From the NCBI RefSeq assembly GCF_964204645.1, contig NC_134034.1, positions 7,352,914 through 7,416,913 on the forward strand: a stretch of DNA of 64,000 bases, read 5' to 3'. Under the pieces are notes generated by a model that searched no databases, was not told the DNA's origin, and saw only the letters and a program-made list of their open reading frames with translations. This DNA comes from Tubulanus polymorphus (lineage: Eukaryota; Animalia; Nemertea). Below are positions 10,179-42,600 of this stretch, piece after piece; position 1 is the first letter of the stretch; every line of letters starts with the position of its first letter. Made by a program: the position numbers and the translations under genes.

Positions 10179-10196
10179 TTTTTTTTCGCTATATAA

Positions 10197-10759: not shown

Positions 10760-10784
10760 ATGCATAATTTTTTTTGCTAAATAA

Positions 10785-11207: not shown

Positions 11208-11229
11208 TAATTTTTTTTTTGCTAAATAA

Positions 11230-11658
11230 ATGGATGATAAAGTTGATTATATTGATATTATTCCTCATGATATAAATAAAACTAAATTTAAAACATATTT
11301 AGAAAAACAAATATTAGAAAGTGACTTAAAGATAAAAAAGAAAAAATATTTAAAAAGTAAAATTATATATTATTTGATTATAAGTGGTTCGGTTACAATT
11401 AGTTCTGTAATAACATTTCTAGCAATATTCAGTCCATTAACGCCTTTAGCTATATCAATTGGTGTGTTAGGATTAAGTTCAAGTGTTTTAACCGGTATAA
11501 GTTCAAAATTAAATATAAAAAGTAATAAAGAAAAAATTAAAACTAATATAAAAGAAATTAATAAATTAAAGAATACACTAGATTATATAATAAGTTTAAA
11601 TGGTCATATAACAGTTGAAGAACAAGATAAATTATTAAAAGAATTAATAAATTATTAA
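11230..11658 (+). CDS. Polinton protein with two predicted transmembrane segments, 142 aa
   Basis: Central hydrophobic hairpin; homolog at 35996-36430. Confidence 0.75.
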   Translation: MDDKVDYIDIIPHDINKTKFKTYLEKQILESDLKIKKKKYLKSKIIYYLIISGSVTISSVITFLAIFSPLTPLAISIGVLGLSSSVLTGISSKLNIKSNKEKIKTNIKEINKLKNTLDYIISLNGHITVEEQDKLLKELINY

Positions 11659-11674
11659 TTTTTTAGTTATATAA

Positions 11675-13090: not shown

Positions 13091-13106
13091 TTTTTTTATT
13101 ATGTAA

Positions 13107-14567: not shown

Positions 14568-14607
14568 ACATGATCAAAAATAAATAATTAATTTTTTTGT
14601 TAAATAA

Positions 14608-15855
14608 CTGAGTGGGAGTTATATCAATCCTTCTAAGAATCATAGAAGATCTAATGCTATTAAAGCAGAAAGATCTCATCATATAATTACTAATAACCCT
14701 TCTAATATTAATCCTGATGAAACTTTATATATTAGAATCCGTCGATTAACACAAAATACTTTTTACGTTCCAAATAGTATTTATTTATCAGCTGATATAA
14801 AAGTAATCGGTAATAATAATAATTATGTTGTTGATAATGTTGGAAGATATTTGATTAAAAAGTTAACAATAAAGATTGGTCCAGAAACAGTTTTCTCATT
14901 AGATGATTATAATTTATTCATGCATTATAAAGATTTATGGTTAACTAAAGAAAATAGAAATAATATGATATTTCAAGGAATCCAATCAGAAAACCAAAAT
15001 AAATTAAGATCAGGAGCTAATGACGCAATAGTAACTCGCACCGCAGATAATTTGATAAAAAAGATTTATGGAAGCAAATATAAAATTCCATTAGACTTTG
15101 AATTGATAAATAACAATGCACCTTTATATAAATATGCAATTCAAGAAGATGTTACATTCGAAATAACATTTGCTCCTGTAAATGAAATTGTATTATCTAG
15201 CGTTGTTAAAGATATGAGTTATAAATTATCGAATATATGTTTGGAATATGACACAGTAACTGATGAAAATATTTCAAGTATAATTCAAACTCAATACAAT
15301 CAAGGATTTTCATTATTATATGATTATATTGATAAATTTAAAACCGTAACTATTAATGCAAATGATGAAATTATTAATGAGAATATTAACTTCCCAAGAA
15401 GATCTATTAAAGGTATATTAATATTTTTTACCATTGCAACATATACTAATGGTGCAATACAGGTAGATAATTATTATAACCCTGAAATAACAAAAGTAAA
15501 AATAACTATCGAAGGAATAGCAAATAAAATATTTTGTCAAGGAATGAGAATGATAGATCAATGGCCAGAAATTAGAAAACATTTTATGAATGAAAAAGTA
15601 AAATCATCTGAAAATTGTAATATTAATCAAATTGATTATTATACCGGTAATAAATATGCATTATGGTTAGATTTTAGAACAACAGAGGATAATTCATAAC
15701 ATGGTTCTGGAAAAAAACTACAAAACACTAAAGTTGGAATACAATTATTCATGACAAAGAATAAAGGAATCAAAAATTTTAAAATGCACATTTATATTAT
15801 ATCTGACGCGCAATTAAATATTGTAAATTCACAATTAGATAGTGTTATGTATTAA
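14608..15855 (+). pseudogene. Major capsid protein (element A); start codon mutated to CTG, stop at 15697
   Basis: 415 codons colinear with the intact ORF at 31884-33131. Confidence 0.75.
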
Positions 15856-15887
15856 AATTTTAACTTTAATAAAAATATATATAATAA

Positions 15888-16664
15888 ATGGAAGGAGGTA
15901 AAGTATATAAACATATTCCATACATCGATACACATGAAAATAATGATGGTTTATATTATGTAATACCTTGTAATATAGCTTTGATATTTGATCCTATTTT
16001 CAAAATTTATAAAACTAAACTAATACATATCGATAATAATAAAGGTGGTGTTGTTGATAATTTAAGTAATGTAATTGATAATAATGTAATACCTTCTACA
16101 TCTAATAATGTAATACCTTCTACATCTAATAATGAAATAATATTAAATATTAGTGAAAATAGAAATTATTGTGATTATTGTAAAGGTGAATTTTCAAACG
16201 CCCCATCAAATTGGAATAAACATATGAATACAAAGGTACATATTACTAATGTTATAGAACGTGTTGGTTTAAGAGAATTTATAGAACACCCATTTAGATA
16301 TGTTACAAAGTTTGTTTCAAATAAAAAAGTAAATGGTTAAGAATTATATGAAGATTTTTTATTAGCAACACCTAATAAAGATGAATTAGATTTAACTGAT
16401 GCTAATGAAATATTAGGATCAAACACTGTAAATGAAATATTAGGAGCAAACACTAATAAAGATTCTATGAAACATAAAGTAGAAAATAATGATAACTTTG
16501 ATTGGATGAATAAGTTTAACAATGAAACAACTATTGATGATGCGGTAAAAAGGGCGAAGAATAAGTATAAAAATAAAACAACTATTGATGTAGATTCGGT
16601 AGAGCATTTGAATAAATTGTTAGGGCCTGATAGTGAATTGGAGAGTGATAGTGGAAGTGATTAA
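15888..16664 (+). CDS. Element A-specific ORF(s) with a C2H2 finger and acidic tail, probably one frameshifted gene
   Basis: TAAATG start; YCDYCKGEF..WNKHMNTKVH; internal 24-bp duplication (NNVIPSTS twice). Confidence 0.55.
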
Positions 16665-16744
16665 GATATTAATTATATTTAACTCAAATGATAATATTAG
16701 TTGAAAATTGTATAAAATAATAGTAAATAAAAAAGGGGGTTTTA

Positions 16745-16822
16745 AGTATTTAAGGTATTTAAGGTATCTAATACATATCTAATACATATCTAATACATAT
16801 CTAATACATATCTAATACATAT
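16745..16822. repeat. Short tandem repeats: GTATTTAAG x2-3 and TATCTAATACA x5
   Basis: Directly visible between convergent genes. Confidence 0.9.
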
Positions 16823-16912
16823 TATTTGAAAATACCTTAAATTATATTTCTTTTTTAAATTTATGTTGAAACCTCAGTAATAATAAATAATCTTTATTAT
16901 TTTCAAACTTAT

Positions 16913-17539
16913 TCATATATTTGTTGAATTTTTTGAATATTTATATTCATATTGAAATTGTAGTCTCAGTAATAATTTTGAACCTTTATTATTCTTTAAT
17001 TTATTCATATATTCATCATGTAATTCAGTAGGTATAATTTGATTTTCTTCCAATGATTGTTGCATAGATTTTTTATCTTTGTTATGAAATAAAACTAGAA
17101 ATCTTATATTCTCCCTAAAGTCTTTAACAATTGAATTATATTTTTGATTTAAAACCCATGTTGTTATCCCAAAATGTCATCCAGAGAAAGCTAGATAACA
17201 TAACTCACTTTCTCTCACTTTTGATTCATGTAAATTAGCGCAATCATCTATAATGAATAATGTATTTGATCCTTTATAAGTATCAATTGCTATTTTTATA
17301 AAATTATCTAAATTTTCTTTTACTGTTTTAGGATCTAATATAATAAACTTTTTTATCTTAACTATATCTCTATTATATGTTTTATTCATTTCATAAGTAG
17401 GACAAAATAATATTATATTATCAAAATGATTCTTATAAATAGTTTCTAACACGTCTAATATGAAATGTGTTTTACCACAATTGGTTACTCCAGTTATTAA
17501 CATATTATGCGGTTCAAATATAAATAAATCTTTATTCAT
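16913..17539 (-). pseudogene. A32/FtsK-HerA-like packaging ATPase (element A)
   Basis: Walker A GVTNCGKT and Walker B LFIIDD; the Arg of the GRH motif is replaced by TGA at 17177-17179. Confidence 0.88.
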
Positions 17540-18137
17540 TCATTCTTTTAATTTTACTAGATAAAATCCATTCATTAAATTTATCATCGTATCCTTTATA
17601 TTTCACCAAAGAATACTTTTTTTCCTTTAAGAGTTTTTGTTTTCAATACTTTTTCTATTTTGTATTCTATTTCATCTGGATTTGGTACAAGTGATAATTC
17701 TTGTTCATAGAAATAACCTAATATTTCTTCATCTTTTAGATCTTCCAATTTATAAACAAATGGTTTAGTTAATATTATCTTTTTAATCTTAAATATTTCT
17801 TCAGTAAAATTAGGAGTATAACCTTTATAAAATGTTTTTCGATATTTAGAAATTCTAACATGTTTTCCTATCTTAAATTTAGGTTCACCGAAATCATGCG
17901 TAACAATCGCTCCATATAAATTATTCCAAACTATTTCTGAATTATCTTCTTCTCTAGCCTGTATGGGTTTCATATTTATAGAACTATGTTTAGAATTATT
18001 ATAACCTTTCACTAAATCATCTAACACATCGATATATTTATATGTTTCATTAGCAGTAAAGTATTTCCACATTCTAGTTTTCAATGTTTTATTAAATCTT
18101 TCTATAATAGATGCTTTTTTATCTGAGTGTGTTGAAA
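17533..18137 (-). pseudogene. Retroviral-type integrase, C-terminal half with chromodomain (element A)
   Basis: IERFNKTLK catalytic Glu, YNNSKHSSI, and a frameshifted chromodomain YKIEKVLK..VKYKGYDDKFNEWI. Confidence 0.88.
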
Positions 18138-18447
18138 AAACAACTACAATCATACAGTCAAAAATCTGTTACATGTTATTATAAGAGAGTGCTTCATTTG
18201 AATATTGATCAATCAAACAGGTGTTGCACAACGTTGTTGTTATATTGGATAGCTAGCAGTTACATAATAAGCACGCAGTACATACAACACACACAGGCCA
18301 GTTAGCCGGCATTGAACTACCACGTTTTCATTGGTTGCTGAAAGCGAGGTTTATTTAAATTAGCTCGGCCGTGACGACAGGAGGATAGTCATCATTCTCT
18401 CTCGTGATTAAAAGGAATATTTCAATGTTTTTACGGTAAGTTTTAGC

Positions 18448-18736
18448 AAAACCACCCGACTTGACTCGCAGAGTTTTTAGGGGATAAGCATCCCGTTATT
18501 GAGAGGCGCCACGAGATACCTATCCCCAAGCATTTCTACTTACACCCCTGTGGACCACGCTTCACCAATTCTCCTTCAATGGTTGACAGGAAACACATTA
18601 TATTAAAGGCGCCTAATGCATTTCCTATCAACCCCTTACCCCCGAAAGGAGGATCGAAAGTCGAAACTGAAGGAGAACCACGGAGGGTGGACAAAGGTGC
18701 ATTTTCGAAATGCCCCTGCAAGCCAAGCCCGGCGGC
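18448..18736 (-). ncRNA. Candidate structured Pol III ncRNA, copy 1 (unknown family)
   Basis: Same as 28168-28456; TATATAA at 18767-18761. Confidence 0.7.
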
Positions 18737-19206
18737 ACTCCAGTGGTTGAATGAATTGCATTATATACTTAGCTAAAACACCTAAGTAAATGTTGCTGGT
18801 GCTAAAAAAATATGTGAAATTTGAAATTATAAATTATTCCGAATGAAAAGAATATAAGAATGAAAACTGATAAATGAATTATGGATTTTTAACTTAATTA
18901 TGATATAATTTTTAATCAAATTAGTAATCAATTACTATGTTAATTGATTAACAAATTCAAATTCAAATTCAAATATTCATTTTAGCATACTCAGTGCTAT
19001 CATCTTTAAATTTAAGAAAAAACTAATAATAAGAAACGACTGTAATACAATATTCAAGTAAAAACAAAATAAATTAATAAAAATAATGAATATCTAGAAT
19101 CCGAAATGACTTATCTGGACAATTTAATTGCTCCGCATAGATAGACAAAAGTAGTGAGATATTCAATTAATTAAAAAAATTATTTTTTTTGCTTTTTTCT
19201 AAAATA

Positions 19207-19560
19207 TTAATCCATTTTCTTTATTATCAATTTTGGAATTTCAGAAGTATTTTCATTTTTGATAGCAGTTGTTTCAGAATTATTAATATCATGAATTTTA
19301 TTTGATTTCTTATACCAATTACGCCCAATCAAAATGAATACAATTACAAATCCAACTGTAAAATATAGACATTTATCAAATATTCTATCATTAGAAGGAT
19401 TAGAAATAACAATATTTTCACTATTTTTATTAACATTTTTATTACTTATTTTTTCTTTTACAGCTTTTTTATATTCTTGTGATTTAATTCCTAATTGTCG
19501 AGACCATTCAATTTGTTTCTGTGATCTCGGTTTTTTCTTCACTTCTTCCACCTCGCTCAT
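19207..19560 (-). CDS. Polinton single-pass membrane protein, 117 aa (copy of 28900-29280)
   Basis: Basic N-terminus, one hydrophobic segment, TAAATG start. Confidence 0.65.
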   Translation of the reverse strand: MSEVEEVKKKPRSQKQIEWSRQLGIKSQEYKKAVKEKISNKNVNKNSENIVISNPSNDRIFDKCLYFTVGFVIVFILIGRNWYKKSNKIHDINNSETTAIKNENTSEIPKLIIKKMD

Positions 19561-19904
19561 TTATTAGAGAAATATTTTTACTTTCAATATTTGAAAATGT
19601 TATAACCCCAGTTGATAATAATGTCATATATCCACCTAATTGAAATGATAAATATCCAATCCATTTATTTAATTCAGTCATAACTAAATAATCATCCCCA
19701 AAGTTTTGAAATTTCCAAATGTTAGTTCAGAAAGAACATAACAAAAAGCAAAAAGCATACACCGACAGAACGCAAAAGTTCTAAATACTGACGGGGCCGG
19801 AAAAGGTAGAAAAACGATTACAGTACCTTTTCACGACTCCGGAGCCAGACCACTATTCGCCAGTTCGACAGGCCCCCAATTTGTTACACGTTTGAAACAA
19901 ATCT

Positions 19905-21051: not shown

Positions 21052-21124
21052 ATAAAAAATAAAAATAAATATAGCTGCAAAGCAGCGATAACGGGTTTTC
21101 TGCACAGTCTTAGAATCCTGTTCA

Positions 21125-21350
21125 ACGGTGGATTTCAACAAAGCATTTGATAAGGCTCAACATCAGCCATTACTAAACAGTATCAATGATAGGTCGCCCA
21201 AATGGCTCAGCAGTTATCTCTGAACGGAAACTTGTAACCGAAATCAACGGAACGCCTCATCTTGGAATGAGACGGTCTAACTAGTGGAGTCACGCAAGGT
21301 AGTATCCTAAGTCGTCTTCTGTTTAATCTCCTGACAAATGACATACACAG
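21125..21350 (+). pseudogene. Degenerate non-LTR (CR1/L2-like) reverse transcriptase relic
   Basis: VDFNKAFDK..WLSSYL..SGVTQGSILSRLLFNLLTNDI. Confidence 0.75.
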
Positions 21351-21435
21351 TTATCCAAAATATACCAGACCGAGTAAATTTCCAAAACAACCTTAACACA
21401 CTGTTCGACCAAAAACTTAATGTTCCGACAAAACC

Positions 21436-21732
21436 ACGGGCGACAAAACCAAAATTATGAATCGTCGCGGGTGACAAAACCAAAATATTGAATTGTCACG
21501 GGTGACAAAACAAAAATAATGAATTGTCGCGGGCGATAAAACCAAAATAATGAATTGTCGTGGGCGATAAAACCACAATAATGAATTGTCGCGGGCGTTA
21601 AAACCAAAATATTGAATCGTCGCGGGCGATAAAACCAAAATAATGAATTGTCGCGGACGGCAAAAACAAAATAATGAATTTTTGCGTGCGACAAAACCAA
21701 AATAATGAGTTGTCGCGGGCGATAAAACCAAA
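21436..21732. repeat. 31-bp satellite, first block
   Basis: Unit AAAACCAAAATAATGAATTGTCGCGGGCGAY, about 9 copies. Confidence 0.97.
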
Positions 21733-23149
21733 CTAGGGGTCCAGGGACACCATGCTCACTTGGGAAGTGGTTTCAAATGCTCAACTATCTAACAATTTAA
21801 ATACATAACGCCCTCTAGTGACCATATACAAAAACCAATGACCTTGAAACCCACCACAATCATAGAACATGTGAGCAGCTATGATTTTGTAATTGATTGT
21901 GATAACAAAATATGCCTCGTTACCAATTTAATATGGAAATACTAAGTTATTCTACTATTCAACGCCCTCTGGTGACCATATGCAAAACCCAATGACCTTG
22001 AAACTCACCACAATCGTAGTACATGTCATGAAATACAATTTTGCAATTGATCATAGTAACAAAATATGCCTAGGTACCAATCTAATAAGGAAATACTAAG
22101 CCATTCTACTATTCAGCGCCCCCTGGTGACTATATAGAATAACTAATGTCCTTAAAAACTCACCACAATCATAGACGATGTCATGAACTACAACTTAACA
22201 ATGGATCATGGTAACAAACTATGCCTAGGTACCAATCTAATAAGGAAAAACTAAGCTTTTCTACTATTCAACGCCCCCTGGTGACTATATGGAATAACTA
22301 ATGTCCTTAAAAACTCACCACAATCATAGACGATGTCATGAACTACAACTTTGCAATTGATCATGGTAACAAAATATGCCTTGGTACAAATATAATATAG
22401 CGATACTAAGTTATTGTATTATTCAACGCCCCCTGATGGCCACATACGAAAACCAATGACCTTGAAACTCACCAAAATCATAGAACACGTTATGGGCTAC
22501 AACTTTACAATTGAATATAGTAACACAATATGCTTAGGTATCAATTTAATGTGGAAAAACTTTTTCCCACCTACGAATGAGTACTGATGACACCAAGATG
22601 GCCGCCAATTGCGTCATAATTGGCTGATCAAAAATACCTGTCCCAGGTATAAAACATCCCTCTCTAAAGAATACCCATCAGCAATTGCAATGAGAAATGG
22701 CAAACCAGTAGGAAGCTACAGGACCTAGAATTCTGGCCAAAATTGACATTTTTGGGCACTAAAAAGGTCATAGGACGGCCATCTTGAGTCAGATCGACCC
22801 ATTTTTCTTATGCTGATGGGCCTTTGGTAGATTCAAATATAAACGAAAGATCAAGGTAATTGATCAAAGCGTCTTCAAAATTTCCCACGAAAACTTCGAA
22901 AATGTTTAAAAAGTGCTGATTATGGCAAACAACAATGGCTGCCAGTCGACCATCTTGAATCTGACAGGGCTAGTTTTTGGGCTGACGATGTGTCTAGGGT
23001 AGATACATGTTTACACCAAATATCAAGACATTACCTTGAAGCGTCTTCAAAACTTCCCAAAATAACTGGATTCCGTCTATGGACGGACGGACGGACGAAA
23101 AGTGAACGCAATAGCCCGCTGGGACTAAAGTCCCAAGTGGACTGAAAAA
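21730..23149 (+). mobile_element. Non-autonomous Helentron/HINE-like element inserted in the satellite
   Basis: Inserted in an A-run without TSD; contains about 154-bp tandem repeats (21808-22555), a (GGAC)n microsatellite and the terminal hairpin TGGGACT-AA-AGTCCCA. A related end lies inverted at 59986-60050. Confidence 0.6.
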
Positions 23150-26100
23150 GAATTGTCGCGGGCGACAAAACCAAACTAATGAATTGTCGCGGGTGATAAA
23201 ACGAAAATATTGAATTGTCACGGGCGACAAAACCAAAATAATGAATTTTCGCGGGCGATAAAACCGTAATAATGAATTGTCACGGGCGATAAAACCAAAA
23301 TAATGAATTATCGCGGGCGACAAAACCAAAATAATGAATTATCGCGGGCGATAAAACCAAAATATTGAATTGTCGCGGGCGACAAATCAAAAAAAAAATT
23401 GTCGCGGGCGACAAAACCAAAAAAAATTGTCGCGGGCGACAAAAACAAAATATAAAACCAAAATAATGAATTGTCGCGGGCGATAAAACCGTAATAATGA
23501 ATTGTCGCGGGCGATAAAACAGAAATAAAGAATTATCGCGGGCGACAAAACCAAAATGATAAATTATCGCGGGCGATAAAACCAAAATATTGAATTGTCG
23601 CGGGCGCCAAAACCAACAAAAAAATTGTCGCGGGCGCCAAAACCAAAAAAAAAATTGTCGCGGGTGACAAAAACAAAATATAAAACCAAAATAATGAATT
23701 GTCGCGGGCGACAAAACTAAAAAGAAGGATTGTCGCGCGCGACAAAACCAAAATAATGAATTGTCGCTGGCGATAAAACCAAAATAGTGAAATGTCGCAG
23801 GCGATAAAACCGGGACAAAAAAAAAATTGTCGAGTGCGATAAAACCAAAATTATGAATTGTTGCGTGTGACAAAACCAAAACAATGAATTGTCGCAGGCG
23901 ATAAAACAAAAATAATGAATTGTCGCGGGTGATAAAACCAAAATATTGAATTGTCGCGGGCGACAAAACCAAACTAATGAATTGTCGCGGGTGACAAAAC
24001 CAAAATAATGAATTGTCGCAGGCGATAAAACCAAAATAATGAATTGTCTCGGGCGACAAAAACATAATATTTAATTGTCACGTGCGATAAAACCAAAATA
24101 ATGAATTTTCGCGGGCGACAAAACCAAAATAATGAATTGTCGCGGGCGACAAAACCAAAATAATGAATTGTTGCGGGTGATAAAACCAAAATAATTATTT
24201 GTTGCGGGCGACAAAACCAAAATATTGAATTGTCGCGGGCGACAAAAAAAAAATTAAACCAAAATAATGAATTGTTGCGGGCGACAAAAACAAAATATAA
24301 AACCAAAATAGTGAATTGTCGCGGGCGACAAAACCAAAATAATGAATTGTCGCTGGAGATAAAACCAAAGTAATGAATTGTCGCGGGCGATAAAACCAAA
24401 ATATTGAATTTTCGCGGGAGACAAAACAAAACTAATGAATTGTCGCGGGCGACAAAACCAAAAAAGAATTGTCGGGGCGACAAAACCAAAATAATGAATT
24501 GCCGCGGGCGACAAAACCAAAATGGTGAATTGTCCAGGGGACAAAACCAAAATGGTGAATTGTCGTGGGCGACAAAACCAAAATAATGAATTGTCGTGGG
24601 CGATAAAACCAAAATAATGAAGTCGCGGGCGACAAAACCAAAATAATGAATTGTTGCGGGCGATAAAACCAAAATAATGATTTGTTGCGGGCGACAAAAC
24701 CAAAATATTGAATTGTCGCGGGCGACAAAAAAAAAATTAAACCAAAATAATGAATTGTCGCAGGCGACAAAAACAAAATATAAAACCAAAATAGTGAATT
24801 GTCGCGGGCGACAAAACCAAAATAATGATTTGTCGCTGGAGATAAAACCAAAGTAATGAATTGTCGCGGGCGATAAAACCAAAATATTGAATTTTCGCGG
24901 GAGACAAAACCAAACTAATGAATTGTCGCGGGCGACAAAACCAAAAAAGAATTGTCGGGGCGACAAAACCAAAATAATGAATTGCCGCGGGCGACAAAAC
25001 CAAAATGGTGAATTGTCCAGGGGACAAAACCAAAATGGTGAATTGTCGTGGGCGACAAAACCAAAATAATGAATTGTCTTGGGCGATAAAACAAAAATAA
25101 TGAATTATCACGGGCGATAAAACAAAAATATTGAATTGTCGCGGGCGATTAAACCAAAATATTGAATTGTCGCGGGCGACAAAACCAAAAAAAGATTGTC
25201 GCGGGCGACAAAAACAAAATATAAAACCAAAATAATGAATTGTGGCGGGCGATAAAACCGTAATAATGAATTGTCGCGGGCGATAAAACAGAAATAAAGA
25301 ATTATCGCGGGCGACAAAACCAAAATGATAAATTATTGCGGGCGATAAAACCAAAATATTGAATTGTCGCGGGCGACAAAACCAAAAAAAAAATTGTCGC
25401 GGGCGCCAAAACCAAAAACAAAATTGTCGCGGGCGACAAAAACAAAATATAAAACCAAAATAATGAATTGTCGCGGGCGACAAAACTAAAAAGAAGGATT
25501 GTCGCGGGCGACAAAACCAAAATAATGAATTGTCGCTGGCGATAAAACCAAAATAATGAATTGTCGCAGGCGATAAAACCGGGACAAAAAAAAAATTGTC
25601 GAGGGCGATAAAACCAAAATTATGAATTGTCGCAGGCGATAAAACCAAAATAATGAATTGTCGCGGGCGATAAACCCAAAATATTGAATTGTCGTGTGCG
25701 ACAAAACCAAAATATTGATTTGTCGCGGGTGACAAAACCAAATTAATGAATTGTCGCGGGCGATAAAACCAAAATAATCAATTGTTCCGGGCGATAAAAC
25801 CAAAACAATCAATTGTCACTGCTGATAAAACCAAAATATTGAATTGTCGCGAGCGACAAAACCAAAATATTGATTTGTCGCGGGTGACAAAACCAAATTA
25901 ATGGATTGTCCCGGGCGATAAAACCAAAACAATGAATTGTCGCGGGCGATAAAACCAAAAAATTGAATTGTCGTGGGCGACAAAACCAAAATACTGATTT
26001 GTCGCGGGTGACAAAACCAAATTAATGAATTGTCGCGGACGATAAAACCAAAATATTTAATTGTCGCAGGCGATAAAACCAAAATCTTGAATTGTCGCGG

Positions 26101-26446
26101 GCGACAAAACCAAAATATTGAATTGTTGCGGGCGACAAAACCAAACTAATGAATTGTTGCGGGCGATAAAACCAAAATAATGAATTGTCGCGGGCGATAA
26201 AACCGCGACAAAAAAAAAAAATTGTCGCGGGCAATAAAACCAAAATAATGAATTGTCGCGTGCGACAAAACCAAAATAATGAATTGTCGCGGGCGATAAA
26301 ACCAAAATAATGAATTGTCGCGGGCGATAAAACCAAAATATTGAATTGTCGCGGGTGACAAAACCAAATTAATGAATTGTCGCGGGCGATAAAATCAAAA
26401 TAATGAGTTGTCGCGGGCGATAAAACCGAAATAATGTTTTGTCGCG
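23146..26446. repeat. 31-bp satellite, main block (about 105 units) with higher-order duplications
   Basis: Same unit; variant blocks recur at offsets 483 and 1769. Confidence 0.97.
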
Positions 26447-26544
26447 TTATTTCAGTTTTGTGGTTTTGTCATAATGTCGCCCTCATTTGCATATACGTGT
26501 TTTTTTTTACACATGGCCCTTATCAGCCACCATACTAAAGCCTT

Positions 26545-26891
26545 AAGGTCGCGTAAAACTCGATAAACACTTCAAGCGACACAGCGAACGATCTCCTTTC
26601 CCCTACAGCGAACGCTTAACCTAGTAGAGGCTACTAGCCTATGTAGGCCTATGTATATGCGTAGGCCTAACATCCGGACAGATTGGTCGTAGGCCTATTG
26701 AATTTAACAACCCACCTAAATATCGTAAATTTTGTTTTGAAGTTCAATCCAATGAGTCCGTTAATAAACGCAACAATTGTACTGTGTTTGTTTGATACAG
26801 TAAAGCTCAGTACCGCCTAAAGCCGCGTCAAACTCGATAAACACTTCAAGCGACACAGCGAACGATCCCTTTCCCCCACAGCGAACGCTTA
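26545..26891. repeat. Two direct repeats of about 72 bp
   Basis: AAACTCGATAAACACTTCAAGCGACACAGCGAACGATC.. at about 26555 and 26830. Confidence 0.85.
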
Positions 26892-28167
26892 CTCCGAATG
26901 TCAAGTGAGTCCAGCATACGGATAGGAGTGTGTTATATACTTGTATTTAGTAAATAACTTGTGCATTTGACAATGATCGGTATGTACTGTAGGAAATATA
27001 GAGTATTGATGGTATTGATATAGAGGTTGAAGCCCGCGGCCGAATAAAGTAATATATTCTTTTATTTTGATACCTCGTCGACATAACAGCTTTTCTCCGC
27101 TATATCTCTTCGGCGTGTTTAGTTTAGGCCTACGATTCCCCGGTACACTAAAGATTTATCTTAGTAAATACACGGTTAATTCGGTGAAGAAAAATAGGTA
27201 TTGTTATACTAACTCCTTGAAACCCGCAGCCAAATCACTGGTAGTAATAAATTAATTTGTACTCGATTTGATTCTCATGATGAGGAGAAACAGGCAGCTG
27301 ATCCCCGGAACGACGATGTAGTAACACACGTCGATTCGTCGATGTTTACGGCTCGACAGTGCTTTTAAAATCTAAAGTAGTAAATTTCCAGTGTATCGGT
27401 AATATGATTTGATGAGGAAAATGGGCTATTGTTAAAATCACTGTTTGAAGACCGCGACTGAATTTGAAGTCTGCGGCAATAAATTAGTTCATTTATACTT
27501 GAATTGATAATCGAAGTGACAGTCGGCCTGCGGGTTGATTTCGGTTTGACGATTCGAAAAACATGTCGCCCCATTGAATGGGGCTAAATTTTCGATGTTT
27601 ACGGCCCGACAGCGCATTTGTAACGATGATTCGTGAAAAAACACGAGGGCTATTTGTAGATCTCAGTGAGCTGAACGATATTATATGGATTGTATATGAA
27701 ACAGTGGTAAGGTAACAAAGCCTATGTTCTTTTGGTAAAAATAGTGTGGAAGAAAATAATAATAATAATAATCACGCGGATATCAATAGGGTTTTCTGTG
27801 AAATAACAGAAAACCCTAATGAATATCTAGAATCCAAAATGACCTTAGTCGTTTTATAAACAACTACAATCATACAGTCAAACATCTGTTACATGTTATT
27901 ATAAGAGAGTGCTTCATTTGAATATTGATCAATCAAACAGGTGTTGCACAACGTTGTTGTTATATTGGATAGCTAGCAGTTACATAATAAGCACGCAGTA
28001 CATACAACACACACAGGCCAGTTAGCCGGCATTGAACTACCACGTTTTCATTGGTTGCTGAAAGCGAGGTTTATTTAAATTAGCTCGGCCGTGACGACAG
28101 GAGGATAGTCATCATTCTCTCTCGTGATTAAAAGGAATATTTCAATGTTTTTACGGTAAGTTTTAGC

Positions 28168-28456
28168 AAAACCACCCGACTTGACTCGCAGAGTTTTTAG
28201 GGGATAAGCATCCCGTTATTGAGAGGCGCCACGAGATACCTATCCCCAAGCATTTCTACTTACACCCCTGTGACCCACGCTTCACCAATTCTCCTTCAAT
28301 GGTTGACAGGAAACACATTATATTAAAGGCGCCTAATGCATTTCCTATCAACCCCTTACCCCCGAAAGGAGGATCGAAAGTCGAAACTGAAGGAGAACCA
28401 CGGAGGGTGGACAAAGGTGCATTTTCGAAATGCCCCTGCAAGCCAAGCCCGGCGGC
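28168..28456 (-). ncRNA. Candidate 289-nt structured Pol III ncRNA (unknown family), copy 2
   Basis: GC-rich island. The 5' and 3' ends pair (19 of 20 bp); internal 20-bp, 17-bp and 14-bp helices are complete only with G-U pairs on the minus strand. Starts at G 31 nt after TATATAA and ends at the first TTTT. Confidence 0.72.
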
Positions 28457-28480
28457 ACTCCAGTGGTTGAATGAATTGCA

Positions 28481-28522
28481 TTATATACTTAGCTAAAACA
28501 CCTAAGTAAATGTTGCTGGTGC
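28481..28522 (-). promoter_or_regulatory. TATA box (28487-28481) and possible PSE-like element near -66
   Basis: Spacing equals that of U6-type Pol III promoters; the PSE match (GCACCAGCAACATTTACT) is weak. Confidence 0.5.
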
Positions 28523-28899
28523 TAAAAAAATATGTGAAATTTGAAATTATAAATTATTCCGAATGAAAAGAATATAAGAATGAAAACTGATAAATGAATT
28601 ATGGATTTTTAACATAATTATGATATAATTTTTAATCAAATTAGTAATCAATTACTATGTTAATTGATTAACAAATTCAAATTCAAATTCAAATATTCAT
28701 TTTAGCATACTCAGTGCTGTCATCTTTAAATTTAAGAAAAAACTAATAATAAGAAACGACTGTAATACAATATTCAAGTAAAAACAAAATAAATTAATAA
28801 AAATAATGAATATCTAGAATCCGAAATGACTTATCTGGACAATTTAATTGCTCCGCATAGATAGACAAAAGTAGTGAGATATTCAATTAATTAAAAAAA

Positions 28900-29280
28900 T
28901 TATTTTTTTTGCTTTTTTCTAACATATTCATCCATTTTCTTTATTATCAATTTTGGAATTTCAGAAGTATTTTCATTTTTAATAGCAGTTATTTCAGGAT
29001 TATTAATATCATGAATTTTATTTGATTTCTTATACCAATTACACCCAATCAAAATGAATACAATTACGAATCCAACTGTAAAATATGAATATTTATCAAA
29101 TATTCTATTATCAGAAGGATTAGAAATAACAATATTTTCACTATTTTTATTAACATTTATATTACTTATTTTTTCTTTTACAGCTTTTTTATATTCTTGT
29201 GATTTAATTCCTAATTGCCGAGACCATTCAATTTGTTTCTGTGATCTCGGTTTTTTCTTCACTTCTTCCACCTCGCTCAT
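28900..29280 (-). CDS. Polinton single-pass membrane protein
   Basis: ORF with TAAATG start and one hydrophobic segment. Confidence 0.7.
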   Translation of the reverse strand: MSEVEEVKKKPRSQKQIEWSRQLGIKSQEYKKAVKEKISNINVNKNSENIVISNPSDNRIFDKYSYFTVGFVIVFILIGCNWYKKSNKIHDINNPEITAIKNENTSEIPKLIIKKMDEYVRKKQKK

Positions 29281-29818
29281 TTATTATAGAAATATTTTTA
29301 CTTTCAATATTTGAAAATGTTATAACCCCAGTTGATAATAATGTCATATATCCACCTAATTGAAATGATAAATATCCAATCCATTTATTTAATTCAGTCA
29401 TAACTAAATAATCATTTTTTAAATCGGAATATAATCTATTTTCATCTTCAATTGGTAGTATATAATTACATAATTTACTATAACCTTTTACTACATTTTC
29501 TGATATCGCGTCATTAATTCTAGCTGTTCTCGCGGCTTCATAAATCTTAAATAATCTAATAATTTCATCTGATTTCATTGTATCTAATTCATTATAAGTT
29601 AAATTTTTACGGACAAAATTTTTACATTTTCCAGATGCTATTAATATTTCTAATTGATGTTTACAGTAAAGATAATATTCATAATTATTATTTGTTGTAA
29701 CATTATTTAAAACACCATCATCTGGAATTAATTTGTTTTCTGTTATTCCTAAATCATCTAAAGTTTTTTCAATTGGAACATCACCATTTTTAGATTTTAT
29801 TTTCTTTTCACCTACCAT
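29228..29818 (-). CDS. Polinton hypothetical protein, 196 aa
   Basis: ORF with T7-GTTATA-TAAATG start context. Confidence 0.7.
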   Translation of the reverse strand: MVGEKKIKSKNGDVPIEKTLDDLGITENKLIPDDGVLNNVTTNNNYEYYLYCKHQLEILIASGKCKNFVRKNLTYNELDTMKSDEIIRLFKIYEAARTARINDAISENVVKGYSKLCNYILPIEDENRLYSDLKNDYLVMTELNKWIGYLSFQLGGYMTLLSTGVITFSNIESKNISIINERGGRSEEKTEITETN

Positions 29819-29849
29819 TTATATAACAAAAAAATTATTTGTGATGTTG

Positions 29850-30115
29850 CAACTACTAGAATTCAACTAGAATGTAACTAGAATTCAACTAGATTAACAA
29901 GCTAGTTGAAATATTGTTATTTTTGTTTATTTCTTGTTAAATCTAGTTGATTTTTGTTCCAACTACCAATAACTAGAATTCAACTAGAATGTAACTAGAA
30001 TTAAACTAGATTAACAAGCTAGTTACAATATTGTTAAATTCTAGTTGAATTCTAGTTACAACTACCAATAACTAGAATTGTAACTAAATATGTAATTGAT
30101 TAACAAACTAATTGA
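29850..30115. repeat. Degenerate 11-bp repeats (AACTAGAATTC) in both orientations
   Basis: Visible directly; includes a duplicated block of about 55 bp. Confidence 0.85.
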
Positions 30116-30165
30116 ATTTAAATAAATTCATATTTAAATGGGTGTTGTAATCTAAATAGTAATTT

Positions 30166-30726
30166 TTATCTTTTAATATTTTTCAACTTATCCATATATT
30201 CATTATGTAAATCATGTGGAATAATATCATTTTCCTCAAGTGCATTTTTCATCGATTTTCTATCTTTATTGTAGAAAAAAACTAGAAATCTAATGTTTTC
30301 TCTAAAGTCTTTAACAATTGAATTATATTTTTGATTTAAAACCCAAGTTGTTATCCCAAAATGTCTCCCGGAGAAAGCTAAATAACATAACTCACTTTCT
30401 CTAACTTTTGAATCATGTAAATTTGCACAATCATCTATGATAAATAATGTATTTGATCCTTTATAAATATCAATTGCTATTTTTATACAATTATCTAAAT
30501 TTTCTTTTACTGTTTTAGGATCTAATATAATAAATTTATTATTTCTAGTAATATTTCGATCATAAGTTTGATTAAATTCATATGTTGGACAAAATAATAC
30601 TATATTATCAAAATAGTTTTTATAAACAGTTTCTAATAAATTTAATATAAAATAAGTTTTTCCACAATTTGTTACACCAGAAATTAACATATTATGAGGC
30701 TTAAATATGAATAATTCCTTATTCAT
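30166..30726 (-). CDS. A32/FtsK-HerA-like DNA packaging ATPase
   Basis: GVTNCGKT, LFIIDD, SGRH, VLNQ. Confidence 0.92.
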   Translation of the reverse strand: MNKELFIFKPHNMLISGVTNCGKTYFILNLLETVYKNYFDNIVLFCPTYEFNQTYDRNITRNNKFIILDPKTVKENLDNCIKIAIDIYKGSNTLFIIDDCANLHDSKVRESELCYLAFSGRHFGITTWVLNQKYNSIVKDFRENIRFLVFFYNKDRKSMKNALEENDIIPHDLHNEYMDKLKNIKR

Positions 30727-31853
30727 TTATATATTTTTAATTTTACTTGATAATATCCATTTATTGAATTTATTTGGCCATCCAACCCATTTTACTAAAG
30801 AATATTTTTTCTTTTAATAGTTTTTGTTTTTAATACTTTTTCAATTTTATATTCTTGTTCTAGATTTTCAGTAGTTAAACTTAATTCTTCTTCGTAAAAG
30901 TAGCCATCAACTTCTTCACCATCTAAATCTTCTAATTTATAGACATATGGTTTTGTTGTTATTACCTTTTTTATTTTATATATTTCTCTAGTAAAATTTC
31001 GATCGTATCCTTTATCAAATATCTTTTTATACTTAGAAATTCTAACATTTTGACCAACTTTAAATTTAGGTTCACCAAAATCATCTACAAGAAATACTCC
31101 ATATAAATTATTCCAAACAATTTCAGCATTTTCAGGTTTTCTAGCATCAATAGGTTTCATTCCAATAGAAGAATGATAAGAATTATTATAACCTTCTATC
31201 AATTTTGGTAAAACATCAATCCATTTTAAAGTATTATTTGCTGTAAAATATTTCCACATTCTTGTTCTTAATGTTCTATTAAATCGTTCAACAACTGCTG
31301 CTTTTTTATCTGATTTTGTTGAAAAATATTTAATATTATGATTATCTAAGAGCTCATGAACAAGTGAATTATCAAACTCTTTTCCATCATCAAATTGTAT
31401 TTTTTCTGGTTTTAGTTTATCATCCGAAAGAAATTTTCTTAAAACATTTGATGTTTGTACAGCATCTTTTCTATAAAGTGGGAAGCTCCATACATAACGA
31501 CTAAAAATATCAATTATATTCAATAACCACCAATAATCATCATTATCTTTCGTAACATTTTTCATATCAATTAAATCTCCTTGCCACTGTTGATCTACAT
31601 AACTTACCATAGTTTTACGAGTTTTATATTTTCTAACAATTTTTTTATGTGTTGTGTATGTTGGTTGTTCTAACATAAATTCATTTATATCTTTATATTT
31701 AACTAAATTGTGTGGGATTATCTTATCTAATTTATCTTGTTTTACTTTACACCATATATTTTTAGTAGAAGGATAAGCAACCGAACTCTCAGGGTTGTAA
31801 TATAAATTTCTTAAATATTGTTCTTTAGTATTAGGAGTTTTTTTACCTCCCAT
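30727..31853 (-). CDS. Retroviral-type (rve) integrase with C-terminal chromodomain
   Basis: DDE residues in WQGDLID, QFDDGKEF and VERFNRTL; the chromodomain LVKWVGWPNKFNKWI follows a frameshift in an A-run near 30810. Confidence 0.93.
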
Positions 31854-31883
31854 TTATATATCGTTAATTTTAACTTTATATTT

Positions 31884-33131
31884 CTAATATTGAATACTAT
31901 CTAACTGTGAATTTACAATATTTAATTGTGCGTCAGATATAATATAAATGTGCATTTTGAAATTTTTGTCTCCTTTTTTCTTTTTCATGAATAATCGTAT
32001 TCCATCTTTAGTGTTTTGTAATTTCTTCCCAGAACCATGTAATGAATTATCCTCTGTTGTTCTAAAATCTAACCATAATGCATATTTATTACCGGTATAA
32101 TAATCAATTTGATTAATATTACAATTTTCAAATGATTTTACTTTTTCATTCATAAAATGTTTTCTAATTTCTGGCCATTGATCAATCATTCTCATTCCTT
32201 GACAAAATATTTTATTTGCTATTCCTTCGATAGTTATTTCAACTTTTGTTATTTCAGGATTATAATAATTATCTACCTTTATTGGACCATTAGAATATGT
32301 TGCAATGGTAAAAAATATTAATATACCTTTAATAGATCTTCTTGGGAAGTTAATATTCTCATTAATTATTTCATCATTTGCATTAATAGTTACAGTTTTA
32401 AATTTATCAATATAATCATATAATAATGAAAATCCTTGATTGTATTCAGTTTGAATTGTGCTAGCAATATTTTCATTAGTTACTGTGTTATATTCTAAAC
32501 ATATATTCGATAATTTATAACCCATATCTTTAACAACGCTAGATAATAAAATTTCATTTACAGGAGCAAATGTTATCTCAAATATAATATCTTCTTGAAT
32601 TGCATATTTATATAAAGGTGCATTGTTATTTATCAATTCAAAGTCTAATGGAATTTTATATTTGCTTCCATAAATCTTTTTAATCAAATTATCTGAGGCA
32701 CGAGTTACTATTGCGTCATTAGCTCCTGATCTTAATTTATTATGGTTTTCCGATTGAATACCCTGAAATATCATATTATTTCTATTTTCTTTAGTTAACC
32801 ATAAATCTTTATAATGCATAAATAAATTATAATCATCTAATGAGAAAACTGTTTCTGGACCAAACTTTATAATTAATTTTTTAATCAAATATCTCCCAAC
32901 ATTATCGACAACATAATTATTATCATGACCAGTTACTTTTATATCGGCTGATAAATAAATACTGTTTGGAACATAAAAAGTATTTTGTGTTAATCTAGGA
33001 ATTCTAACATATAAAGTTTCATCGGGATTAATATTTGAAGGGTTATGAGTAATTATATGATGTGATCTTTCTGCTTTAATAGCATTAGATATTCTAGAAA
33101 TCTTAGAGGGACTTATATAACTCCCACTCAT
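31884..33131 (-). CDS. Major capsid protein (double jelly-roll, inferred), 415 aa, intact
   Basis: Size, beta-strand-rich pattern, position beside integrase and ATPase, and strong conservation with element A. Confidence 0.75.
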   Translation of the reverse strand: MSGSYISPSKISRISNAIKAERSHHIITHNPSNINPDETLYVRIPRLTQNTFYVPNSIYLSADIKVTGHDNNYVVDNVGRYLIKKLIIKFGPETVFSLDDYNLFMHYKDLWLTKENRNNMIFQGIQSENHNKLRSGANDAIVTRASDNLIKKIYGSKYKIPLDFELINNNAPLYKYAIQEDIIFEITFAPVNEILLSSVVKDMGYKLSNICLEYNTVTNENIASTIQTEYNQGFSLLYDYIDKFKTVTINANDEIINENINFPRRSIKGILIFFTIATYSNGPIKVDNYYNPEITKVEITIEGIANKIFCQGMRMIDQWPEIRKHFMNEKVKSFENCNINQIDYYTGNKYALWLDFRTTEDNSLHGSGKKLQNTKDGIRLFMKKKKGDKNFKMHIYIISDAQLNIVNSQLDSIQY

Positions 33132-38331: not shown

Positions 38332-39647
38332 ATGGATGAGAAGATAGCATGCGAAATTTGTGGTGAACTTCTAAGAAAAAGTAATATGGCTCGACATATG
38401 AAAAAACATGATGAAAATTATAAACCCCCTAAAATAAACTGCCCAAAATGTAATAAATTATTCTCAAGAAATTATGTTAAAAAACATTCAGAGAAGTGTA
38501 GAATTAATGGCGCAACGGCTAATGTTGATAGTAATGAAAGTAATAGTAATTCTGCCGAAGTTGAACCTGAAGTTATTTGGAAAAGACCTTTCTTATTCTA
38601 TGATACGGATAATATAAAAGATCATTTCTGCGAGCCTTGTCGAATAAAATATAACCCTGAAAATATAGAAGATTGGGAGAATCATCAATTTCGTAAAGTA
38701 CATATAGATAAAATTTCTAATAAATTTGAAACTGAATTTAATGAAAGAAAAAATAATTTATTAGAAAAAATAAAATATGAGAAAACGTTACCAGATAATA
38801 GAGAAACAGTTGAAAAGTTAGAAAAACAATATAATGAATTAACAAGAAAAACATATTATTGTAAATATTGTAAATTGATTATTACAACAAGTAATTCAAA
38901 TCTACATAATAGAACATTAAAACATAAAGAAAACGTAAGAAAATACCAAGAGCTTAATGAAGATCTATTACCAATAAATTATAAACGAAAATGTCCACAA
39001 TGTAGTTATGCGACCTTAAGACAAGAAGGTACTGTGTTATTTTGTGTTGATTGTGGGTGGCAAAAGAATTTATGGGGTGAAGAAAAAACTAGAAATTTTC
39101 TCATAGATCCAAAATTAAATTATCTAGATGAAATTTTTAAAATATTTTCTATAGAAGATCATACACCAGAATATATGCAATGGCTTGAAAAAATGAAAAT
39201 AATAGAAAATAAAAATGGCGAAATAACTAAAAAAGATATTATAAATACAATTATTCCGTCAACATTTAACACAAAACAAAAGAAAATGTATTTATATTTA
39301 TTATTTTTAACGATTATTATGAAAAACCTAAATTAACAGTAGAAGATATGGAAAATATAAAAAAAAATATTCAAACAAATATTAATGTATCATTTGGAAA
39401 ATAGAATAACAGATTCAATAAATTATGAATTCTTTTTAAATAAGATTGTAAATTATTTAAACCTAGATATTATAATTCCATTTGACGAATTAACAAACAA
39501 AAAGAAACAAAGAGAGCGAGATGAAATGTGGAACAAGATGGAACTTTATTTAAATGAAAAAATGGAATGGAAGAAGAACCTAAACAATTAAATGAAAATG
39601 AAGAAGCCAATAGTGATTTCGAGTTTGATGATATAGATCCATTTTAA
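38332..39647 (+). CDS. Multi-zinc-finger protein fused to a poxvirus A2/VLTF-3-like late transcription factor domain (homopolymer frameshifts near 39306, 39363 and 39560)
   Basis: Four C2H2/C2HC fingers, then CPQC-x13-CVDC, RNFLIDPKLNYL, KPKLTVEDMENIKKIF, SINYEFFLNKI and DEMW. These match my recollection of vaccinia A2 (CSGC-x13-CIFC, SNFHVSNKLIHL, TINYSFFLDKI). Confidence 0.75.
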
Positions 39648-42600
39648 TAACCATAAGGTAATGTTTTTATACCATCATCTAAAATATGCCTTTTATCATC
39701 AAATGGATTTAAACTAGTTTTTTCAACTTCATTAATGTACATTTCATGATCTTCTGATCTTAAACAATTCATTTTGTGTTTCATTACAATTGATTTATAT
39801 AAACACTTTATATAATCTTGAAATTCTATATGTTTATCAACCACATGTTTTGTTATTCCTTTTAACTTTTTAGCTTCATGATCTTTTGTTCTGTAACTAT
39901 ACATTTTACTTCTTATCCCAACAAATTCAATCATTTCATCACCCCCTAATTCATCTTTAAATTTACCAGGAATCTTTTTATTATCATTGCTAAATAGTTC
40001 ATGATCTTTGGGATAATTGCTAAAATCAAAATAATGTTTTAATGTTTTTAAGTCTTTTGTTATATCATTTGTCTTGATTTTTAGTATGTAACTGTCGGTA
40101 TTTTTTTGGATTAATGGGAACCCAGAATTGAATGTTCCATCATCTGTTGATAAATCATAAACATAGTCAGTTGGGTTATATATTTCAAATAAATCTTTAA
40201 CTTCTTCTGTTAATTCTTTTTCTACATGCCTTAAATTAAAACAATTTGGTTTAGATTTGATTAATTCTATATTCATATTAAATCCTAATGAACTGCATAA
40301 TATATTCAATCCTGATATAGCAACTTTTCCTTTTTGAGCAAAGGATATTGTTTTGCGGTTTTGGAAACTTTTTGAACCATCTGCGGCATAGAATCCAATG
40401 AAGAACCACTTTCTTAAATTATTTTTTGCATTCAATACATAATCTGGAACTATCTTTTCTTTTGTTGAAGTATTACTTTTCACTATTGCATGAATATAGA
40501 ATTCATCATTATATTTTGTAGCAAAATCTTTAGGATTATTTACAAATATTCTATAAACCGCGGATGATTTCATATGATCCATGATTCTAAATGTTTTATA
40601 TGAATAAACTTCTTCGCAGAATTTCTTTATTCTTTCTAATAATTTCAAATCTTGATTGCATAAATACCAACGATATTGAGTGCGATTAACATAATTATAC
40701 ACACCTGCTGAACCATCACCCATGAAAAATCCTTTGATAAAATATTCTTTTTCTTCTAATGTTTCAGGTTCTATATTATAAATATTATCAATAATTTCAT
40801 CAAATGACATATGATTCATTCTTTGGAAAAATCTTTTATGTAATAATTCATCTCCAATTTTTATATCAGTTGGTTTTATTTCATCACCATTTCGTTTAAT
40901 TAAACTATGATCTTCTGTAACATCTACAAATCCTAATTTAGTTCTAACTCTATAGATTTTCTTATTTGTTTTATGCCTAATAATATTCTTTAATTTTTTC
41001 CATCCATTTCTTGTCCAAACATCCATTAAACCATTTATTTGTATTAATTCTTTTTCTCCATATGAAATATAACATTCATTTTGTTTTGGAATTATTTCTG
41101 AAATTCTTCTTATCAATATTTTATTATTACATTTTAATAATATTGGGGTGTCAGCTGTTACAGGATCGAAATATAATATTTCAATATGCTTTTCCCCAAA
41201 AAGTGGTTGTAAAACAATATAATAAAAATCATACATTAATAATTTTGATACTTCTAAAACAGTCGAACCAATAAATATAGGTTTATTAAATTTCATTGAT
41301 GTTCTTTTTAATTTAACTGCTGTTAAATAATCTTCAAATCTTTTATTTCCTAAATGTCTATGACTTGATTGTAGGTGTCTTAATCTTTCAGAATTATTTA
41401 CTAATTCAATATCATTTCTATTTCTAATATTTTCGCATGTTTTACCATAAAAACTATTATTCATTAATTTGAAGAAATCTTTTTCAAAATCTGTTTTTGA
41501 TATGGTTCTCTATTGAGTATTGAAATCTATATATTTTTCTAACCACTTCGATTGATTAAATTCAATATATTTATGTACTTTCTTTAATTTCATTCCTTGT
41601 TTTAGATAAAATTTTAACATTCTATAATGAACAATATAATTGTATTTACTATTTTGAGTAAGTATTAATTTTTCTGTAAAAACATGATCTTTCGGTTTTA
41701 TTTTCTTCTGGTATTCACTTAAATAACTATCATCTACAGTTAAATGTTCTGGGCAATAAGGTAAGTTTCTTGTTTTAAACTTTATATTTTCAGGATATTC
41801 TAAATCAACTACAAAGAAATAACCAATTGGTGCTTCATCTTTTAAACTCGCAATTGCGCTTTCCCAATCAGTTTTATCACCATTTTCAACTTCTGTTAAT
41901 ATAAAACTTTTATATGGTTGAGGTTTCATCATTGCCCAACCATATAAATTATTGGCGTCAATATATAATAATTTATATTCATCATTTGCTTTAAAATATC
42001 TATCTCCCATAACACCACTAATTCCACCTCTAATTGATTTTTCAAATAATAAAACCATATCTGGTTCTTTTAATAAATCTAATTCTACATTTGTATATTT
42101 TAAACCACATTGCCAGGTTAAACCAGGACTAGAGTAGCAATAACAAGGATCAACATTAAAATGATTCAAATTAACTTCTCTAAATTTTTCAAATATGTCA
42201 GCCAATATCATAACGTCTGATTTTAAATATAAATCAACTAATTCACCATGATTTTTCATCTTAAAATGGTTCCAAATATTTAATGTTCTATTAAACACTT
42301 CGTCTTTCACATACTCCTCTTTTAATTGATCATAGAATTGATCTTTTAATAATTCTGTTACATTAAAATCATTGTGTGTTTTATAAAATGAATAAGGAAT
42401 TGCGCCTTTATATCTCAATAATTTAAAATCTTGTTCATTTGGATAATAATATCGAGTTATAACAAAATCATTATCAACTAAACTTTTTGATAAATTATCT
42501 AATGAACTTGCTAGAAATCTATAAGAATCTAAAAATCTAATGCAACCAAATTGAAATGAAATATAATTTTCAGATGTTTTAGCTAATAGTTTAAAATCAT

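Follow-up and report, generated by a model that had tools for sequence, protein, structure and literature searches.

Here, we describe a predicted structured RNA of 289 nt (28168-28456, minus strand) located within a Polinton of the nemertean Tubulanus polymorphus. The window analysed is a stretch of 64,000 nt (NC_134034.1, positions 7,352,914 to 7,416,913) that carries Polinton sequence in several pieces, and all coordinates refer to it unless another locus is named. The piece holding the RNA, Polinton copy B (20294-44797, minus strand), has mismatch-free terminal inverted repeats of 146 nt whose ends begin AGTA, is flanked by the same 6 bases on both sides, and is inserted into a Gypsy RT gene, the two halves of which form its flanks. 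Polintons typically end in inverted repeats starting with AG and are bordered by a 6-bp target duplication. An earlier note on this DNA had placed the RNA inside a Polinton, and it does lie between the inverted repeats at 20294 and 44797 with their 6-bp target duplication.

With Polinton hallmarks taken from parts of PMC11161782, the genes of copy B (all on the minus strand) were assigned as a protein-primed PolB (39644-44717) broken into three ORFs, with a PF03175 match on 41510-42634 (E 7e-12) and an intein/LAGLIDADG insert; a double jelly-roll major capsid protein (31884-33131; model pLDDT 85) whose best matches are iridovirus and PBCV-1 capsid proteins (E 2e-16); a retrovirus-like (rve) integrase (30795-31853; PF00665, E 3e-10); and an A32-like packaging ATPase (30166-30726; PF04665, E 2e-13). 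Two conserved ORFs of 196 and 126 aa with no Pfam family (28900-29818) lie directly upstream of the RNA, the 126-aa ORF stopping 444 nt before it. No Ulp1-family protease was matched among 20 proteins, a subset of the ORFs, scanned against Pfam. On the other side of the RNA, host-type DNA (approximate limits 21100-27780), made up of a LINE-like scrap, 31-bp and 155-bp satellites and high-depth repeats, is probably a later insert in copy B. The 31-bp satellite is present in about 107 copies at 23150-26446 and, together with the 155-bp satellite, falls within 21437-26446. A second, more distant Polinton copy (7118-18139) is 73 – 90% identical. Eight related Polinton loci (among them L001, L003-L006 and L008), all partial, were retrieved from metagenomes through an alignment of the 196-aa ORF, at 52 – 70% protein identity; in two of them (L003 and L005), as in the copy at 7118-18139, the integrase and ATPase are inverted relative to the capsid gene.

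Several further features of the element and its surroundings were recorded. The PolB intein with its LAGLIDADG domain (40101-41172) is also found in the fragment at 62307-64000 and is absent from the relative L004 (3524-3530). Zinc fingers of the U1/matrin type (PF06220), which can bind RNA, occur at 38332-39336 and at the PolB N-terminus; the zinc-finger protein may be a partner of the RNA, although the L001 contig has a comparable gene and lacks the RNA. Long AT-rich palindromes occupy spacers in the window (29855-30060 and 27779-27827), in L003 (3001-3120), L005 (3541-3660) and L008 (808-1020), with sequences that differ between relatives. Giant viruses and virophages have 3'-end or termination hairpins, and by analogy these palindromes may be such hairpins. 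An 85-nt non-coding motif (28799-28883) is 84% identical to L001 2433-2517, where it lies between other genes, in opposite orientation and with a different inverted repeat closing it. A 27-nt part of the motif is repeated at 27817-27843, and the motif may be a further small element, structured or regulatory. In the folding scan of the window, the tiles ranking next after those of the RNA belong to a palindromic repeat pair at 52781-54230 that looks like a MITE-type DNA repeat.

Fold and twin hairpins

For 28168-28456, the computed folding energy of the minus strand is -150.3 kcal/mol (z -12.97), a stability equalled by none of 200 dinucleotide shuffles, versus -91.7 kcal/mol (z -4.42) for the plus strand, and with DNA folding parameters the values are -59.9 for the minus versus -42.8 for the plus strand. 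Among 880 tiles of 290 nt covering both strands of the whole window, the two lowest energies are those of this stretch and of its second copy (below). G+C content is 50%, versus 22% in the 443 nt upstream and 23% in the gene block of the element. In the computed fold 75% of the RNA is paired, with 20 G-U among 108 pairs; its five long helices contain 19 G-U pairs versus one true mismatch, and the longest Watson-Crick run is 10 pairs. A coding explanation was dropped, the only overlapping ORFs being of 20 – 65 codons. The asymmetry between strands, the z of -13 and the G-U-rich helices support the earlier proposal of selection on a single-stranded fold, and the stretch is very probably a selected single-stranded structure.

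The predicted RNA forms a three-way junction of a terminal stem, a long arm and hairpin H2. The 5' strand of the terminal stem (28434-28456) pairs with 28171-28193 in 22 pairs (6 of them G-U) over 23 positions, with one mismatch and a short U overhang at the 3' end. Hairpin H1 (28301-28353; 53 nt, 20 pairs) tips a 40-pair arm and exposes a 13-nt loop, GGCGCCUUUAAUA, at 28321-28333, and its paralogue H2 (28200-28247; 17 pairs) exposes a 14-nt loop, GGCGCCUCUCAAUA, at 28217-28230. Two small hairpins at the junction below H1 (28359-28384) contain UUUCG words and are less certain, with mean pair probabilities of 0.7 – 0.8. Helices that the earlier note had drawn by hand recur in this fold: the terminal stem (19 of 20 pairs, 4 G-U) at RNA positions 2-21, the hairpins 28353-28301 (20 of 20 pairs, 3 G-U) and 28247-28200 (17 of 17 pairs, 3 G-U), the stem 28399-28386/28300-28287 as 15 pairs (28400-28386/28300-28286), the stem CACCUUUGU/ACAGGGGUG within an 11-pair helix, and the small hairpins, at their lower pair probability.

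Both hairpin loops read GGCGCC...AAUA, with 12 of 14 loop letters kept between them, and GAUAGG is common to both hairpins near the base of the 5' arm. No letter shuffle out of 5000 scored as high as the H1-H2 alignment, and only 2 did among 20,000 shuffles in which H2 stays a perfect hairpin; the stems alone are only marginally alike (score reached by 634 of 20,000 shuffles), so the paralogy rests mostly on the loops. Pairs were counted in an ungapped register on the shared GAUAGG, since MAFFT misaligned the two hairpins, and of the 17 pairs compared 8 are identical, 3 are changed on one side, 6 on both sides and none is broken. The arms have thus been rewritten while pairing and loops were kept.

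The hexamer GGCGCC is its own complement, and its two loop copies are the sole fully unpaired ones among the four palindromic hexamers of the RNA, so that both of the two long-hairpin loops present a self-complementary hexamer. A shared palindromic hexamer arose in two independent loops in 0.02% of draws; if the H1 and H2 loops share descent, the relevant figure is 11%, the chance of a palindromic hexamer in one 13-nt loop. Each loop would pair equally well with itself or with the other (6 pairs, -14.1 kcal/mol as a free duplex), and because all three loop pairings give the same 6-pair duplex, an intramolecular kiss and a multimer look alike in the sequence. The hexamer is invariant among the copies seen. 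The paralogous hairpins with their identical palindromic loops, missed like the second copy in the first reading, are the most informative feature of the locus.

Transcription signals and family searches

Upstream of the stretch, TATATAA (28481-28487, minus strand) lies at -31 to -25, the position given in the earlier note, and is the sole TATA-type site in 443 AT-rich upstream bases. From the terminal stem and the TATA spacing, we infer that the RNA begins at G28456. Its first T4 run (28168-28171, minus strand; RNA positions 286-289) stands in a G/C context and is a candidate Pol III terminator. The earlier observation that the first TTTT falls at the 3' end of the stem with none inside is right as to position, seven TTT runs stopping at three, and is weak by itself, since 26% of 5000 shuffles are also free of an inner TTTT. 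No intragenic box A or B was found in the RNA above shuffle level: against the consensus sequences, the best A box has 2 mismatches (3 at the expected place) and the best B box 1, at its first letter, as in shuffles. The layout proposed in the earlier note is accordingly Pol III-like (TATA, T4, no A/B boxes), and its label 'U6-type' draws on the TATA and the missing boxes only. The sequence CTTACCGTAA (28151-28160, minus strand), just past the terminator, resembles the human U6 PSE; it has no TATA at the usual distance, some copies skip the DNA behind the RNA, and the likeness is probably due to chance. By position, a PSE would lie at 28503-28522 (minus strand; -66 to -47), and PSEs diverge between species (PMC1761439 and bioRxiv 2023.01.09.523328, each in part).

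The protein genes of the element carry a different signal. Of 15 ORF starts listed, 14 end in A-ATG-type words, most of them TAAATG, after an A/T-rich run, and in the 30 nt before most ORFs of 20374-44717, TAAATG or a near match to it follows a T-rich run. This start motif recalls the poxvirus late promoter, and by that analogy it would hint at transcription by a helper virus; PMC11296320 makes no mention of the promoter motif sought. No such motif precedes the RNA, which points to a transcription system other than that of the protein genes. Taken from these sequence features, the RNA is likely to be a Pol III transcript.

The earlier statement that the RNA belongs to no known family agrees with an Rfam search, which returned nothing at gathering score in the window and nothing below E 2.3 in the region; on two sub-regions searched at E up to 10, only chance matches appeared. 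None of the Rfam families for 7SK, SRP, RNase P/MRP, Y or vault RNAs scores on the RNA, and ARAGORN detected no tRNA. Apparent likenesses to the SRP RNA start, ribozyme cores and a tRNA primer site were dropped, none having an Rfam score or a longer match. A tRNA- or 7SL-derived SINE was also rejected: internal promoter, poly-A tail and tRNA head are lacking, and the depth of the RNA is not far above that of the element, a weak comparison. Searches by blastn against phages and plasmids gave no match; scans for the loop motifs gave 6, 1 and 0 hits in viral sequences and 5 in prokaryotes, all of them lacking the H1/H2 fold; and a scan for bacterial promoters and terminators stayed at chance level.

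Copies, variants and related loci

The second copy of the RNA (18448-18736, minus strand) is identical at 287 of 289 positions and has the same fold and energy, both differences falling in a poorly paired bulge. It lies within a duplication of 1558 nt (18138-19695 and 27858-29415, 98.7% identical) that is fused into the more distant Polinton copy; identity between the window copies is 99.5% over the whole non-coding kilobase and is not confined to the RNA, and the second copy is not independent evidence.

Four sequencing runs were compared with 26500-32500; the three that match belong to a single study, in which two share a sample, and may include the source of the window. The fourth, presumed to be RNA, gave no coverage of the stretch, and among runs recorded as RNA none contains it; neither result bears on expression. 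The matching runs are DNA-like, with spacers and host repeats covered alike. In one run, a contig with 2 differences over 28118-28479 has a depth of 174, and near-identical gene contigs have depths of 101 – 264; in another, the RNA contig has a depth of 621 and near-identical gene contigs 554 – 672. Bins over the host-type DNA at 26500-27705 are about 10 times deeper than the RNA. As the depth of the RNA is about that of the element's genes, the RNA appears to travel with the element rather than being a far commoner repeat, an argument that is weak because contig depth is not copy number. The second of these runs also contains a 95% variant, a contig with 12 differences and 1 gap over 28273-28496, and an 83% variant, with 35 differences and 4 gaps over 28142-28351; this suggests that sister copies carry diverged versions of the RNA. 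Variant places were seen at RNA positions 176, 178, 183 and 184, all with pairing probability below 0.4; two are those between the window copies and two are among the best-supported read variants (40 of 351 variant rows), and the cluster may reflect 2 – 3 events. None of the 15 joints listed lies inside the RNA, and four skip 90 – 143 nt just past its 3' end.

None of the eight related Polinton loci, five of which reach more than 1.1 kb past the anchor gene, contains an RNA homologue or a GC-rich fold by blastn (best E 0.11), fold scan or GC content. A hairpin-rich tile in L006 was dropped, as it lies within coding sequence. The 196-aa ORF alignment found no locus among viral contigs, and the capsid protein or its alignment found nothing in viral contigs and prokaryote genomes. 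Where the window element has the RNA, L001 (10340-10981, minus strand) has a deoxynucleoside kinase gene (PF01712, E 2e-31). The RNA occupies a swappable, variable cargo site, and its absence from all eight partial relatives indicates that it is accessory cargo of one lineage.

A candidate decoy RNA and its alternatives

The reading we tentatively prefer, with a probability of roughly 0.4, is that the RNA, a non-coding Pol III product and accessory cargo of the element, serves as a dsRNA decoy rich in wobble pairs, in the manner of VA RNA, and that a loop-loop kiss locks it. Host RNA polymerase III would transcribe the 289-nt RNA from the upstream TATA-type promoter, and the exported RNA would use its 22-pair terminal stem and U overhang to bind Dicer or a sensor of dsRNA. 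Its wobble-broken helices would engage the host dsRNA machinery without triggering it, so that the decoy would counter host RNA silencing or dsRNA sensing. The two GGCGCC loops may kiss intramolecularly and lock a compact shape; by a rough count, made without a model, H1 on its 40-pair arm would fold back by its 20 pairs to reach the 17-pair H2. Since the promoter is host-type, unlike the element's own gene motif, the RNA could come from a silent integrated element, as EBERs do in latency.

Host type 3 Pol III genes (U6, 7SK, RNase P/MRP RNA) have a TATA near -30, a purine start and a T-run end, and 7SK and MRP RNAs are about 300 nt long with paired ends. The Polinton RNA is like them in TATA, purine start, T-run, length and paired ends; it differs in having no Rfam similarity and in sitting in a mobile element. 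The comparison with VA RNA and EBERs drawn in the earlier note serves as a working analogy, through wobble-rich stems, paired ends and a U tail, and does not extend to membership, given no Rfam match, no intragenic boxes and nearly twice the length. The adenovirus VA RNAs I and II belong to a virus from the same broad lineage as Polintons, one with protein-primed PolB and double jelly-roll capsid, and they share with the Polinton RNA 5' and 3' ends paired in a terminal stem, a four-U terminator, wobble-rich helices and a three-way junction (PMC6599070 and PMC7589676, in part). A loop-loop contact is shown in VA-I, where this pseudoknot anchors the shape of the RNA, and is predicted here (PMC6599070, in part). 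VA RNAs are about 160 nt long versus 289 nt and use boxes A and B versus an upstream TATA; the Polinton RNA moreover has no match to the Rfam VA model and has two paralogous hairpins with the same palindromic loop. The GGGU-ACCC tetrastem in the central domain of VA RNA (PMC7589676, in part) is found here only in reverse order, in the second-best fold and with two letters changed in the second copy.

In excerpts of PMC6599070, VA RNAs are described as interfering with Exportin-5, Dicer, ADAR, OAS and PKR, and wobble pairs, common to VA RNA, EBER1 and nc886, as lowering sensor activation. The G-U-rich helices of the Polinton RNA, with one mismatch and runs of at most 10 pairs, support a decoy because the same pattern is described there for the pseudo-activators VA-I, EBER1 and nc886. 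EBV EBER1/2 and the MHV68 TMERs are viral Pol III-type RNAs that can be made in latency; the EBERs have an upstream TATA-like box, as here, but EBERs and TMERs have intragenic type 2 boxes and TMERs a tRNA head, neither of which was found in the Polinton RNA (PMC8223928, in part). BocaSR is another VA-like Pol III-type RNA of a DNA virus, but according to parts of PMC11194592 it has an intragenic promoter, is nuclear, pairs with the genome end and serves DNA replication, and no such complementarity was found here; despite its VA-like shape, BocaSR has no inhibitory effect on PKR, so function does not follow from form.

The palindromic loops also suit a self-assembling scaffold without decoy activity, in which GGCGCC loops pair between molecules into dimers, rings or chains for replication or packaging of the element. 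Each loop could pair as well with itself as with its partner; a palindrome, in contrast to a loop that is only complementary to another, permits intermolecular pairing; and conservation is higher in the loops (12 of 14 letters) than in the stems. Precedents are retroviral dimerisation signals, phage phi29 pRNA and BocaSR. The phi29 pRNA is a loop-linked multimer with a self-complementary hexamer in a hairpin loop. The same hexamer-in-loop likeness extends to the MMTV PBS palindrome, where GGCGCC supports dimer contacts in the RNA (PMC4264320, in part), and to the loop-linked multimers GOLLD, ROOL and OLE (PMC12286853, in part), whereas here two such loops, with predicted pairing, occur in one small stand-alone RNA of a DNA element. 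Against a scaffold, related elements with the same capsid, ATPase and integrase have no RNA in the contigs seen, which makes the RNA no core part of packaging, and complementarity to the rest of the element is at chance (2 shared 11-mers, null mean 2.2). A32-type motors are not known to require RNA, and we consider such a scaffold unlikely. Slightly less likely still is the broader proposal that Polintons, as endogenous relatives of adenoviruses, encode their own Pol III RNAs, of which this one, driven by an snRNA promoter, would assemble through its twin kissing loops into dimers or rings for replication, packaging or sensor sequestration; phage pRNA or the ornate RNA multimers of bacteria would then have a eukaryotic counterpart.

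No greater weight than to the scaffold is given to a small-RNA precursor, from which Dicer or Drosha would cut guides of about 22 nt out of H1, H2 or the terminal stem. With 53 nt and 20 pairs, H1 is of precursor size, as is the terminal stem (22 pairs and a U overhang); BLV Pol III miRNAs, TMERs and mivaRNAs are precedents, and terminal strands of VA RNA are diced and loaded (PMC6599070, in part); but H1 and H2 keep their loops and rewrite their arms, the opposite of guide selection, H2 has only 17 pairs, and a tRNA-like leader is absent. The RNA might instead be a passenger acquired by the element, from a family of host RNA genes or SINE-like units not yet described, and we hold this doubtful to a similar extent. 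Its GC content of 50% versus 23% for the element, its variable cargo site beside several kb of host-type DNA inside the element, and a gene-external promoter in host snRNA style fit such an origin; set against it are the lack of any scoring Rfam family, of A/B boxes, poly-A tail and tRNA head, a depth about one tenth that of the neighbouring host-type repeats and matching the element contigs (weak evidence), and diverged versions, which suggest that the RNA has long resided in the element. A host origin would be compatible with use by the element. The least probable of the alternatives is a cis-acting structure, either a 3' UTR or 3'-end signal of the upstream same-strand mRNA or a fold of the displaced DNA strand in protein-primed replication: the last ORF on the strand of the RNA ends 444 nt upstream of it, spacer palindromes occur in the element and its relatives, and the minus strand also folds better with DNA parameters. 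Those palindromes, however, are AT-rich and nearly strand-symmetric, whereas the RNA fold is branched, GC-rich and G-U-laden; exact bracketing by a TATA at -31 and a T4 run would be needless for a cis element, and the RNA lies kilobases from either terminus.

Polintons have been described as protein-coding elements, and no report of a Polinton non-coding RNA gene was found at the level of titles in the open-licence literature. The words noncoding, non-coding and hairpin never occur in the adintovirus paper PMC8502044, nor does noncoding in bioRxiv 2023.08.22.554363. The TATA layout and the twin palindromic loops are particular to this Polinton RNA. The viral Pol III RNAs treated in the cited parts of PMC8223928, PMC7589676 and PMC11194592 have intragenic promoters, the EBERs with added upstream elements; the Polinton RNA, if made, would use a gene-external promoter where those compared use intragenic ones. 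It would then be a small RNA with twin palindromic loops that is tractable at the bench within weeks, and VA-like RNAs would have arisen twice independently in the lineage of Polintons and adenoviruses. Such an RNA would give Polintons an RNA tool that could act from the integrated state, and would indicate which dsRNA defences target DNA elements in hosts where the vertebrate interferon system may be absent.
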